Positions 27,496-44,323 of a stretch of DNA of 64,000 bases are shown piece after piece (within the stretch, counting starts at the first letter, position 1; each line of letters opens with the position of its first letter). The stretch is from Gemmatimonadota bacterium (lineage in GTDB: Bacteria > Gemmatimonadota > Gemmatimonadetes > Longimicrobiales > Gaopeijiaceae). The translations under genes were made by a program, and so were the position numbers. The notes under the pieces are model-generated. The model ran no database searches, was not told where the DNA came from, and saw only the letters and a list, made by a program, of their open reading frames with translations. The DNA lies in the NCBI GenBank assembly GCA_039587465.1, contig JBDHIL010000010.1, positions 56,511 to 120,510 on the forward strand, given 5' to 3'.

Positions 27496-27842
27496 TCAAG
27501 GCCTCCCTTCTTCCATTCATAGAGCAGGCCGATGGCCAAGACCGCGACGAACATGGACATCGCGATGAACGCGCTCCAACCGAGCTCCCGCATTCGCACC
27601 GCCCAGGGAATCAGGAAGATCGTCTCCAGGTCGAAGACGATAAAACTGATCGCCACCATGTAGAACTTGACGGAGAACCGGGTCCGCGTGTCACCCAGAG
27701 GGATCATGCCGGACTCGTACGGCATCTCTTTCTGGGGGGTGGGGCGGCGCGGGTTGAAGATATGGGACCCCACGAGCATCCCGAGGGCGTTCAGGGCCGA
27801 GACTCCGAACAGCAGAAGAAGGGGGAGATAAGCTCCCGACAT
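27486..27842 (-). CDS. nuoA: NADH-quinone oxidoreductase subunit A
   Basis: 118 aa, 3 TM; first gene of the operon; overlaps nuoB by 10 bp. Confidence 0.9.
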
Positions 27843-28051
27843 GGGCCGCCGTCTTTGTGAAAATGTTCACGAGAGGACGCGAAAAGGTATCCGAAACCTC
27901 GGATAAGTGTCAAGCACACAAAAGCCAGTGAATTGCTTGAAATTTCTCGGTTTGCACGGCCCGGGTGGGCTCGCCTAGATTGGGCGCCTCTGCTCCACCC
28001 GGACTCAGTGGAGACAAGGCGGTTTCACACCTCGAAGACACGCGTGAGAAC
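27843..28051. promoter_or_regulatory. divergent intergenic/promoter region between nuoA and dcd
   Basis: 209-bp region that is less GC-rich than the flanks, between divergently transcribed nuoA and dcd; contains a TTGAAA hexamer; no experimental support. Confidence 0.4.
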
Positions 28052-28606
28052 ATGCCCATAAAGTGCGACAAGTGGATCCGGCGGATGTCCCAGGAACACG
28101 GAATGATCGAGCCCTTCGAAGACGGGCAGGTGCGGGCAGGCGTGATATCCTACGGGCTCTCTTCCTATGGCTACGACATCCGGGTGGCACCGGAGTTCAA
28201 GGTCTTCACCAACGTCCACAACGCCTTGGTCGATCCGAAGAAGTTCGATGACCGGTCCTTCGTCGACATCAACGAGGACACCTGCATCATTCCGCCCAAC
28301 TCCTTTGCGTTGGCGAGGACCGTCGAGTTCTTCCGCATTCCGAGGGACGTGCTGGTGATCTGCGTCGGGAAGTCGACGTACGCGCGGTGCGGGCTGATCG
28401 TCAACGTGACGCCCCTCGAGCCGACCTGGGAGGGATATCTCACCCTCGAGATCTCGAACACGACTCCCCTCCCCGCCAAGATCTATGGGGGAGAGGGTAT
28501 CGCTCAGCTGCTGTTCTTCGAGGGCGACGAAGAGCCTGAGACGGCCTACGCCGACCGGAAGGGCAAGTACATGCAGCAGGTCGGTGTGACACTGCCCAGA
28601 ATGTGA
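28052..28606 (+). CDS. dcd: dCTP deaminase
   Basis: [23 protein letters not shown]... matches the canonical Dcd N-terminus; start taken at the internal ATG of the 213-aa ORF. Confidence 0.9.
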
Positions 28607-42401: not shown

Positions 42402-42971
42402 CCTATGTCCAAGACCACCGTCTACATCCATGCCGACGAGTCTTGTCTGGGCAACCAGTTCCAGGACCGAGCCACCCCCGGGGGGGCCGGTGGTCTCGTG
42501 GAGGTCTGGAGGGACGACGTCTGTGAGCGCAGGGACTTCTGGATCTCCGAGCCCGACACGACCAACAACCGCATGGCGATACGAAGCGCCATCGAAGCGC
42601 TCCGGGCGCTGACTCGTCCGTGCCTCGTCCACTTCATCTCCGACAGCCAATACCTGGTGAAGGGAATCGGGGAATGGCTGCCCGGCTGGAAGCGCCGTGG
42701 GTGGAAGAGAAAGGGCGGGCCGATCGAGAACCTGGAGCTGTGGAAGGAGCTCGACGTCGAACTCCAGAGCCACGACGTCCGGCCCCGCTGGGTCCGGGGG
42801 CACGCCGGTCACCCCCGCAACGAGTTCGTAGACGGGCTGGCCACTTCGGCAGCACGGGACCAGTCGAACTCAGGGGGGCTGGTCCCCTCATCATTCGAGG
42901 CGTGGCTCGAGGATGAGCGCGAAGAAGGGAGGTATCTGGACTTCATGGAATTCGTCCGGCCGGACGCTTAG
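42402..42971 (+). CDS. rnhA: ribonuclease HI, with ~40-aa C-terminal extension
   Basis: [18 protein letters not shown]...; catalytic DESC...D...[12 protein letters not shown]; start taken at MSKTT. Confidence 0.88.
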
Positions 42972-43651
42972 GCGGGGTCCTGCGGGAAGCCGTCTCGCGG
43001 AGACGAGGTACCTGGACGTCGAAACGGCCCGAGACGCACAAGGCGCTCGGGCCGCTTCTTAGGAAGCCCATCCGGTCACTACGCTGTGTCCGGCGTCCTT
43101 CCAATCCGCTGGCGGGCTCCGTCCCGTCTTAGGTCCACCCCGCGTAAGGGCGGCGGGTCCAGCTCCCTCATCCCCTGTTTGCGCCGCGCGGTTGCGGCCA
43201 AGGGCGCCTCCGAGCTCTCGGAGACTTTCAAGACGAGGCCAGCGACCTCCTCGTCCCGCTCCCCAGGTGTCCTAAGCCCTGGTTCGCCTGCCACCGCTGC
43301 GCCGTCGCGCCCGGCAACTCACTCTTCGGATTCATCAGAGGGATGACCATCGCCATCGATCTCGAATCACCGCATCCGAATCGCGATACATGAATACGAG
43401 GTCCACACTGACGATGCAACCCTTTCAGCCAGGAACATATGTAGATCGAGGTCACACGGCGTAACTTCATATTGCACAACTATATGCATAGTCCGTCAAA
43501 TGTTTCTTCGAGGCCTCTTCGGGGTTGTCCGCAAACAAATGATTTCCAAACATCCTTTCCCTAAACAGATGGCTTTCCACGGATCAGATTTGTGAAAAGC
43601 AGGACCGATAAGGCCTCGATCATGACCGGATTCGATCCGCCGAATTGTTGT

Positions 43652-44323
43652 CTAGCCGACAAGAATATGGCGATCAAAGATGCTTCCGAAGGCATTCTCG
43701 AGGCAAATGGAGGCTTCCTCGAGGCTCACGGGACGTCCAAGCTCCCGCTCGAGGGAGGTCACGGCCTCGTCAGCGATACCGCACGGGACGATGGTGTCGA
43801 AATACCGCAGGTCGGTGTGGACGTTGAGAGCGACTCCGTGAGACGTGATCCAGCCCGACGATACTCTGACCCCTATCGCCGCCAACTTCCCGGAAGACGT
43901 CCAGGCTCCGGTCTTCCCCTCCCTTCGGCCCGCTTCGATTCCGAAGTCCCCTGCCACGCGAATGAGCATGTCCTCCAGATCGCGCAGGTACCTGTGCAGA
44001 TCCTGCCGATCCGGCTTGAGGTCCAGAATCGGATACGCCACGAGCTGCCCCGGCCCGTGGTAGGTGACGTCGCCGCCCCGCCCCGCCTCGAACATCTCAA
44101 TCCCGAGCAAGGCACGCTCCGCGGCGTCAGAGACGACGTGGGCCCAACTGCCTGCAGTGCCCATCGTGATCACGTGGGGATGCTCGACCAGGAGCAGAGT
44201 GTCGGGGACGTCGCCCGCCCGGCGGGCCGAGACCAACTGCTCCTGGAGCGCGAGGCTCTCACCATAGGGGACCCGGCCCAGTCTCCGCACCTCCAGAGGT
44301 GGCCGCTGCGGCGTTTGGGTCAT
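43652..44323 (-). CDS. lipB: lipoyl(octanoyl) transferase
   Basis: 223 aa; LLLVEHPHVITMG, RGG DVTYHGPGQLVAYP, K-containing AIGV motif. Confidence 0.9.
   Translation of the reverse strand: MTQTPQRPPLEVRRLGRVPYGESLALQEQLVSARRAGDVPDTLLLVEHPHVITMGTAGSWAHVVSDAAERALLGIEMFEAGRGGDVTYHGPGQLVAYPILDLKPDRQDLHRYLRDLEDMLIRVAGDFGIEAGRREGKTGAWTSSGKLAAIGVRVSSGWITSHGVALNVHTDLRYFDTIVPCGIADEAVTSLERELGRPVSLEEASICLENAFGSIFDRHILVG

Follow-up and report, generated by a model that had tools for sequence, protein, structure and literature searches.

What can occupy a long gap at which two converging genes both end and in which no gene has been called? We address this question for 680 base pairs (bp) at positions 42972-43651, the entire space between convergent rnhA and lipB in a 64,000-nucleotide (nt) stretch of Gemmatimonadota DNA, hereafter the window. 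The original prediction, made from the letters of the window, flagged this region as unexplained. Its boundaries are confirmed, and no public gene call for this DNA falls inside it. We propose that the gap very probably carries a conserved, independently transcribed gene for a highly structured RNA whose family has so far gone undescribed. The predicted gene (~366 nt, ~43384 to ~43019, minus strand) is delimited by a profile (nhmmer) match, the onset of conservation, the z-score of its minimum free energy (MFE), and covariation. An earlier guess of a non-coding RNA thus gains support from conservation, covariation, and promoter and terminator motifs; in place of the one or more small RNAs then envisaged, the data point to a single RNA of ~365 nt.

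Conservation and descent of the element

Relatives compared with the window are designated by locus labels (L001, L032, and so on). A blastn search with the 680-bp gap as query, run against the lipB neighborhoods of 80 species-level genomes, matched the same gap in ~20 Gemmatimonadota with 70-79% nucleotide identity over ~385 nt (43021-43404). The LipB proteins of these genomes are just 57-71% identical to that of the window. A profile search extended this to 27 GTDB Gemmatimonadota species loci, each directly downstream of lipB. In the window itself, nhmmer finds one copy, on the minus strand at 43386-43018, with E = 1.7e-85. Metagenomes were sampled by an exact-pattern scan that returned at least 120 stretches; 109 of the 120 pattern matches listed are homologues, giving at least 109 in all. 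The other 11 lack nhmmer support and proved on inspection to be chance matches inside coding regions.

The element leaves its mark on the spacing of its neighbors. Among the matches listed, rnhA is convergent and downstream of the RNA in 84 of the 95 loci with enough sequence. The distance between lipB and rnhA is bimodal: the genes overlap or lie less than 190 bp apart without the RNA, and are separated by 520-830 bp with it (1549 bp in one locus). In RNA-less Gemmatimonadota, the two convergent genes either leave 0-190 bp between them or share as much as 58 bp of 3' sequence (junctions L011, L014, L016, L017, L019, L021, L025, L043-L046, L051, L052, L055-L057, and L062). Such an overlap leaves no space for a terminator between the two genes.

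The RNA occurs as 3 subtypes: type I, window-like (~380 nt); type II, compact (~320 nt); and type III (~350 nt). On a rough LipB tree, carriers are scattered among non-carriers within the Gemmatimonadota, the Acidobacteriota outgroup holds no carriers, and the subtypes track LipB clades. This interspersion, together with the match between subtypes and clades, fits an old element that was vertically inherited and lost several times. Either a functional tie or plain genomic inertia could account for the linkage to lipB.

Conservation of this kind could in principle reflect protein, and the original prediction, while finding no convincing open reading frame (ORF), listed a small unannotated protein among its guesses. 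The gap of the window does contain ORFs of 71-86 amino acids on both strands, and a sole recurrent peptide start, MRLIEIDG... (MRLIEIDGDGHPS), appears in several relatives; in the window, this start is broken by a stop at the third codon. Six-frame ORF clustering across 28 loci shows that gap ORFs of different genomes match one another in every frame and on both strands. Nucleotide diversity by position modulo three is nearly flat in the RNA region (0.265 / 0.266 / 0.287), versus 0.21 / 0.16 / 0.48 at the lipB codon positions of the same genomes; by this test, the RNA region has no codon periodicity and no third-position excess. Indels would mostly break a frame: 563 of 626 pairwise indels (90%) are not multiples of three. 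We reject the protein-coding reading on the clustering together with the periodicity and indel tests, and judged by these measures, the gap region is non-coding. That it encodes one or more small proteins is extremely improbable. The conservation of the sequence is instead explained by compensatory base-pair changes.

Predicted fold of the RNA

Helices were defined by hand on a MAFFT alignment (A3) of 76 sequences, each less than 93% identical to any other, and were then verified by counting pairs against slid and shuffled controls. The model comprises 87 pairs in 16 helices, ~13 of them local and 3 long-range. Paired cells reach 88.7%, versus 36-49% in controls with the 3' partners slid 1-3 columns; compensatory changes occur at 69 of the 87 pairs (32-43 slid), and compensatory cells number 623 (78-177 slid). 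None of 500 shuffles equals the observed value on any measure, a statistic inflated by kinship among the sequences, for which the slid-partner controls are the fairer comparison. The 3 long-range helices alone are 96.6% paired, versus 28-41% slid, with 101 compensatory cells versus 2-9. A strict, unbiased scan for covarying helices returns these helices without adding another convincing one. Two other routes to a structure were abandoned: a first all-against-all helix scan that permitted G-U pairs was flooded by false positives, and RNAalifold on the 76-sequence alignment gave a muddled fold, with MAFFT shifting helix registers between subtypes. That the RNA would fold into a compact body with three pseudoknots is a well-supported prediction.

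The 3 long-range helices are predicted pseudoknots (PK1 to PK3). PK1 joins CGCUGG in the loop of helix P4 (43244-43239) to CCAGCG (43112-43107). It is 97.7% paired and covaries at column pairs 160:382 (CG 56, UA 19) and 164:378 (CG 44, UA 19). PK2 joins CUUAGG in the P3 loop (43276-43271) to CCUAAG (43133-43128) and is 95% paired, with column pair 128:350 read as GC 39 and AU 30. The window and L109 share CUUAGG/CCUAAG; the majority carry CUUGGG/CCCAAG, and further variants are CUUGGA/UCCAAG, CUGGAA/UUCCAG (L018), and UUCAGG/CCUGAA (L028). Both strands of PK2 lie within the imperfect inverted copies noticed at the outset, GTCTTAGGTCCACC (43126-43139) and GGTGTCCTAAGCC (43266-43278), which are real. 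PK3 joins UGCGG (43374-43370) to CCGCG in the P6 loop (43191-43187), is 96.8% paired, and varies at column pair 17:231 (CG 49, UA 16, UG 8). A candidate fourth tertiary contact, between GGACC in the P6 loop and GGUCC 5' of P9, was dropped; its central pair is retained in just half of the sequences.

From 5' to 3', the predicted order on the minus strand is a 5' domain, P2, P3, P4, P5, P7/P6, P8/P9, a variable hairpin, and a terminator. In the 5' domain (43322-43383), P1 encloses P1b, P1c, and P1d. The last is an almost invariant hairpin, GAUGGC-GAUG-GUCAUC (43342-43357), that is 100% paired with rare compensatory changes. P2 (43290-43318) is a hairpin in two parts, capped by an invariant GACG loop; all 11 of its pairs show compensatory changes, and it is 96.1% paired. 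P3 (43258-43287) and P4 (43232-43255) are hairpins whose 10-nt loops carry the 5' strands of PK2 and PK1, respectively. The P4 loop reads AGGUCGCUGG, and its stem varies among GAGG/CCUC, AAGG/CCUU, GGGG/CCCC, and AGGG/CCCU. P5 (43206-43225) presents GAGCUC (43212-43217) in its apical loop. P7 encloses the P6 hairpin (43172-43204), whose loop is the 3' strand of PK3, and P8 (GGG/CCC) encloses P9 (43135-43153) and the 3' strand of PK2 (43114-43167).

The 3' part is the most variable. A hairpin at 43062-43102, placed by alignment A3 and the MFE fold, belongs to type I only and is missing in compact subtypes. The hairpin GCTTC-ttag-GAAGC, pointed out by the original prediction, exists; it falls in the variable 3' region and is unconserved in relatives. 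Type III members (L032, L035, L040, L041, L047, L129, L132, and others) have an extra conserved hairpin, GUGAGCCGCAAGGC(A/G)AGC, within P9 (A3 columns 315-345), and their PK1 reads CGUUGGU/ACCAACG. L121 (1623-2024) carries a ~27-nt insertion, AUUGGAGGACCGUUCGCGGAACUUCAUGG, in the linker from P6 to the 3' strand of P7 (A3 columns ~240-266).

Transcription signals and the AT-rich island

Conserved G-U pairs, the difference in MFE z-score between strands, and the matching orientation of promoter and terminator together place the RNA on the minus strand. G-U pairs are numerous (column pair 37:44, for example, is GU in 65 sequences) and would appear as A-C mismatches on the other strand. The MFE z-score is -2.58 on the minus (sense) strand versus -0.94 on the plus strand.

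The putative promoter consists of a -35 element, TTGCAT (43419-43414), followed after a 17-nt spacer by a -10 element, TATTCA (43396-43391), that ends 6 nt before the conserved GCG starting the RNA. The TTG is invariant in 13 close relatives; TTG and TAT..A are both invariant among close relatives and 17 nt apart, with an unconserved spacer. Strong conservation sets in abruptly 6-7 nt past the -10 hexamer. Across the family, TTGNNN-17-NANNNN stands at one fixed position in 68 of the 76 non-redundant loci; information content is highest at CTTG and the AT of the -10 element and is ~0.2 bit in the spacer. A promoter scan calls TTGACG-17-CATACT in L032 and TTGACC-17-AATACT in L036 at the matching place. 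This predicted promoter is of the sigma-70 type and sits inside the AT-rich island.

At the other end, a covarying GC-rich stem, GGCCCGAG...CUCGGGCC, followed by GUUUCGA, forms the predicted intrinsic terminator (43058-43019, minus strand; hairpin 43058-43021). The U-tail is weak in the window, is UUUUUU in L006, L009, and L010, and is GGGGGCUUCUUUUUUU in divergent subtypes. Flanked by T on either strand, the hairpin probably terminates rnhA as well. Judged by these motifs, a promoter and an intrinsic terminator surround a conserved, non-coding, structured body, as is the mark of an independent non-coding RNA gene.

The proximity of lipB raises a rival explanation: the element could be the 3' untranslated region (UTR), or a processed 3' end, of the lipB mRNA, acting in cis or as a UTR-derived RNA. 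lipB lies directly upstream on the same strand in 102 of the 106 loci with enough flanking sequence, among the matches listed, at a distance of 200-433 nt. The predicted lipB terminator of the window, a stem-loop GATCGAGGCCTTATCGGTC followed by CTGCTTTTCA (43621-43593, minus strand; terminator scan), is modest, and read-through is conceivable. Even so, a hairpin and U-run follow lipB in the relatives too: they keep a hairpin and then UUUUC.CAAGUU at this place, and a similar lipB terminator is found in L032. The promoter motif, with its fixed spacing and unconserved spacer, stands right before the conserved body. In L174, L181, and L147, the RNA is set apart from lipB by other genes or extra DNA and still has its promoter region. 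We regard a lipB UTR as unlikely and an RNA gene with its own transcription signals as the better account. The DNA inserted in L174 (2575-7250) and L181 (4810-6220) encodes a cupin-domain protein, a Ser/Thr protein kinase, and a PD40 beta-propeller protein. These genes are unrelated and offer no functional hint.

The island that houses the promoter is striking in its composition. The original prediction described clearly lower guanine-plus-cytosine (GC) content at 43380-43650, and this is confirmed: GC is 0.469 there, versus 0.672 in 42972-43379 and a window mean of 0.645 (standard deviation 0.033, 270-nt windows), making the stretch the GC minimum of the whole 64 kb. The next minima, 0.533 and 0.541, are at ~300-730 and ~27790-28130 (270-nt windows). 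Within the family, mean GC is 0.49 in the 200 nt upstream of the RNA versus 0.64 in the RNA body and 0.65 in lipB, and in 61 of 62 non-redundant loci the body exceeds the upstream stretch in GC. The GC drop is a trait of the RNA family and not a separate oddity.

Such a sharp drop, together with presence or absence of the element between the same two genes, could suggest a remnant of foreign or mobile DNA, with the AT-rich island marking the insertion. Comparison with relatives bears out the variable presence of the element between lipB and rnhA and speaks against the island as a foreign insert. There is no similarity to 50,697 phage and 72,556 plasmid records and no pattern match in IMG/VR, and the element has no terminal repeats and no mobility gene. 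It holds the same position across the phylum, its subtypes follow LipB clades as expected of vertical descent with losses, and the AT-rich stretch is kept in nearly every locus and houses the promoter. A mobile origin therefore has a negligible probability in our assessment.

Besides the lipB terminator and the RNA promoter, the island contains a conserved non-coding block at 43494-43575 (minus strand), ~110-190 nt upstream of the RNA start. It emerged as a second short blastn block, common to L003, L005, L008, L012, L020, and L023, and is seen in the alignments. On the sense strand it shows the motifs GAAAUCAUUUGUUU, in which TGTTT occurs twice, and CGAAGAGGCCUCGAA, and it may serve as an operator, an upstream promoter element, or a second promoter. 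A weaker TA-rich, -10-like motif lies ~60 nt downstream of the block. The upstream 270 nt were considered as a second structured RNA and set aside: their z-score of -1.78 against shuffles is not significant, and their alignment has no consensus fold.

Several observations weigh against a structured RNA gene. Actual transcription and the exact RNA ends are what we infer from the sequence. The -10 element (TATTCA) and U-tail (GUUUCGA) of the window fall below consensus, and a simple promoter and terminator scan misses both. P5, P7, and P8 are just 75-82% paired on the MAFFT alignment, with register shifts between subtypes. The window copy satisfies all helices but P1b (43364-43368 with 43332-43336), which covaries well in the family and forms 2 of its 5 pairs in the window. 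Many Gemmatimonadota lack the RNA at the lipB-rnhA locus, and hence it is not universally essential. As to P1b, L121, the nearest relative, has the same GGUGA(U/A)UC in this region, and an alternative register, AUUC/GAAU, may substitute.

The flanking genes provide context. rnhA (42405-42971, plus strand) encodes an RNase HI of 188 amino acids, identified from the ORF list and by a Pfam RNase_H match on the public gene call. lipB (43652-44323, minus strand), which lies upstream of the RNA gene on the same strand, encodes an octanoyltransferase of 223 amino acids (ORF list; Pfam LplA-B_cat). Both genes end at the gap, which supports the earlier statement that the region is no promoter for either. 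The window is of metagenomic origin: one JGI contig matches it exactly across the gap, another is 99.6% identical, and the relatives of its LipB assign the organism to the Gemmatimonadota. Between the window and L001, which derive from two source metagenome contigs, 3 of the 680 gap positions differ, versus ~9 among the other ~12,000 aligned bases.

Known RNAs and the P5 loop

Could the element be a divergent member of a known RNA class, such as RNase P RNA, transfer-messenger RNA (tmRNA), 6S RNA, signal recognition particle (SRP) RNA, OLE, ROOL, GOLLD, or raiA? A length of ~365 nt, pseudoknots, and a promoter and terminator of its own recall RNase P RNA and tmRNA. We searched the 4227 covariance models of Rfam 15 with cmscan in two modes, on the window and on 12 relatives. 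The whole 64-kb window yields zero matches at gathering score. Between 42700 and 43900, at E ≤ 10, there are four chance-level matches to snoRNA, miRNA, and Scr6925 models, none spanning the RNA and all far below gathering. In the 12 diverse relatives, whose contigs include all three subtypes, no family matches the RNA at E ≤ 1. ARAGORN reports no tRNA or tmRNA in the 64-kb window. Among the papers in the searchable library, the Breaker-lab surveys of 26 and 50 genomes included, none was found to connect an RNA of this kind with Gemmatimonadetes or Gemmatimonadota, lipB, or rnhA. The Scr6925 match, to a Streptomyces small RNA, lies at 42742-42858 (minus strand, antisense in rnhA) and scores 21.4 bits, where the gathering score is 50 (E = 0.53); GC-rich sequence almost certainly produced it by chance.

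The layout of the RNA is equally telling. Its 5' end pairs locally (P1, 43383-43322), its 3' end is the terminator hairpin, and the two ends are unpaired with each other; this excludes the layouts of RNase P RNA, 6S RNA, and tmRNA, in which P1, the closing stem, and the acceptor stem need such pairing. RNase P RNA (types A and B) is alike in length and in its long-range pseudoknots from hairpin loops or joining regions; we set it aside because the P1 of 5' and 3' ends is missing, neither RF00010 nor RF00011 matches, and the RNA is not universal in the phylum. tmRNA, which ARAGORN recognizes by a tRNA-like domain and a tag reading frame, was dismissed when the program detected none in the 64-kb window.

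The original prediction had named SRP RNA and 6S RNA, and neither withstands the searches. 6S RNA is an irregular rod of ~180-200 nt with 5'-3' closing pairing and a large central bubble. The RNA described here is instead predicted to be a multibranched, triple-pseudoknot molecule of 320-400 nt with unpaired ends, and RF00013 does not match it. The hallmark of SRP RNA is its domain IV hairpin, and Rfam holds small and large bacterial SRP models; SRP RNA was discarded for want of any Rfam match at E ≤ 10 in the window or E ≤ 1 in the 12 relatives. OLE, ROOL, and GOLLD were likewise rejected as homologues, as their covariance models give no match. Together with the absence of the RNA from the locus in many members of the phylum, these results make a divergent known RNA very unlikely, and a family of its own remains our reading.

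What the RNA shares with known orphans is a matter of kind. The raiA motif RNA is a pseudoknotted RNA of ~200 nt from Firmicutes and Actinobacteria with its own promoter and terminator and an orphan function. Like it, the present RNA appears to be an independent non-coding RNA gene with its own signals and a compact pseudoknotted fold; unlike it, the present RNA is larger, belongs to another phylum, has another helix layout, and lacks an Rfam match. OLE, GOLLD, and ROOL are bacterial RNAs of the large 'ornate' kind and assemble into homo-oligomers made of RNA alone (Kretsch et al., Nature 2025, PMC12286853). The present RNA resembles them as a large stand-alone structured RNA with many covarying helices, long-range contacts, and an orphan function. 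It is shorter (320-400 nt versus ~580-800 nt), comes from the Gemmatimonadota, unlike the phyla of those RNAs, and has no evident associated protein genes. ROOL and GOLLD usually reside in prophages, whereas this RNA occupies a fixed chromosomal housekeeping locus. Likeness to OLE, ROOL, GOLLD, and raiA is of kind, in size, complexity, and kissing-loop signature, and is not homology.

The kissing-loop signature lies in P5. Among 57 distinct P5 loops, 82% contain a palindrome of at least 6 nt, versus 9% of shuffled loops; it takes the form of a self-complementary 6- to 8-mer. Most sequences carry GAGCUC. One type I clade has CGAAUUCG, which accounts for 8 of the 57 distinct loops. Elsewhere the loop reads GAAUUC (L015, which is unrelated), UGUCGACA (L007), CAGCUG (three sequences), or AAGCUU (a single sequence). 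As hexamers, the switching palindromes are GAGCUC, GAAUUC, GUCGAC, CAGCUG, and AAGCUU. The dimerization initiation site (DIS) kissing loop of HIV-1 offers a familiar parallel: it is self-complementary over 6 nt and has the variants GCGCGC and GUGCAC. In both cases, a 6-nt self-complementary loop has natural variants that stay palindromic; the DIS belongs to a viral genome, and the present RNA is bacterial and chromosomal, with dimerization suggested by its sequence.

Closer counterparts are found among the ornate RNAs. OLE and GOLLD, too, have a hairpin-loop palindrome that changes into other palindromes: their switching loops, L9.3 of OLE and L21a of GOLLD, form symmetric intermolecular kissing loops validated by cryo-electron microscopy (cryo-EM) (PMC12286853). 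Symmetric kissing loops are recognized there by central covariation that keeps self-complementarity, and the P5 loop displays such covariation. The oligomers of OLE, GOLLD, and ROOL have been seen, and the present RNA is likened to them by its loop sequence.

Two observations tell against a dimer. Roughly 10-18% of P5 loops have no palindrome (for example, AAAGCGAA, GAAA, and AAAAUA), and the outer palindrome positions could equally close a 4-nt loop within a single molecule. The switches of adjacent central nucleotides, from GC to AU or CG, make intramolecular pairing insufficient as an explanation. On the analogy with OLE and GOLLD, we lean slightly toward dimerization of the RNA through its P5 loop.

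These elements can be assembled into a model. RNA polymerase would start at the sigma-70-type promoter in the AT-rich island and stop at the intrinsic terminator at 43058-43021, which would double as the rnhA terminator. The transcript would form ~13 local helices, tied together by PK1, PK2, and PK3, and the hexamer of the P5 loop would pair with that of a second copy to give a symmetric loop-loop homodimer. What acts would most likely be the three-dimensional shape of the RNA, whether by scaffolding or binding a protein or ligand or by catalysis. Base-pairing with mRNAs seems less likely, because a compact triple-pseudoknot fold suggests action through shape rather than antisense. The full proposal is a new, Gemmatimonadota-specific class of large structured RNA with a three-pseudoknot fold, a symmetric homodimer, and a new biochemical job. 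We hold it tentatively, a step short of favoring it. Candidate jobs would include tasks such as catalysis, ligand or protein capture, and membrane-linked or metabolic control.

Large, intricately folded bacterial RNAs are rare, and most of the understood ones (the ribosome, RNase P, tmRNA, group I and II introns, and riboswitches) do fundamental chemistry. The orphans OLE, ROOL, GOLLD, and raiA are under active study, and several were recently shown to self-assemble. The present RNA adds an unrelated architecture from an abundant, little-studied phylum of soil, sediment, and marine bacteria. Over 100 natural variants are at hand, its secondary and tertiary map is well supported, and the predicted dimer can be tested directly; a length of 320-400 nt suits it to chemical probing and cryo-EM. 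A candidate Rfam entry, it accounts for a stretch that repeatedly goes unannotated in Gemmatimonadota genomes. If the proposal is true, the RNA would have a standing comparable to that of OLE, ROOL, GOLLD, or raiA, with an unrelated architecture.

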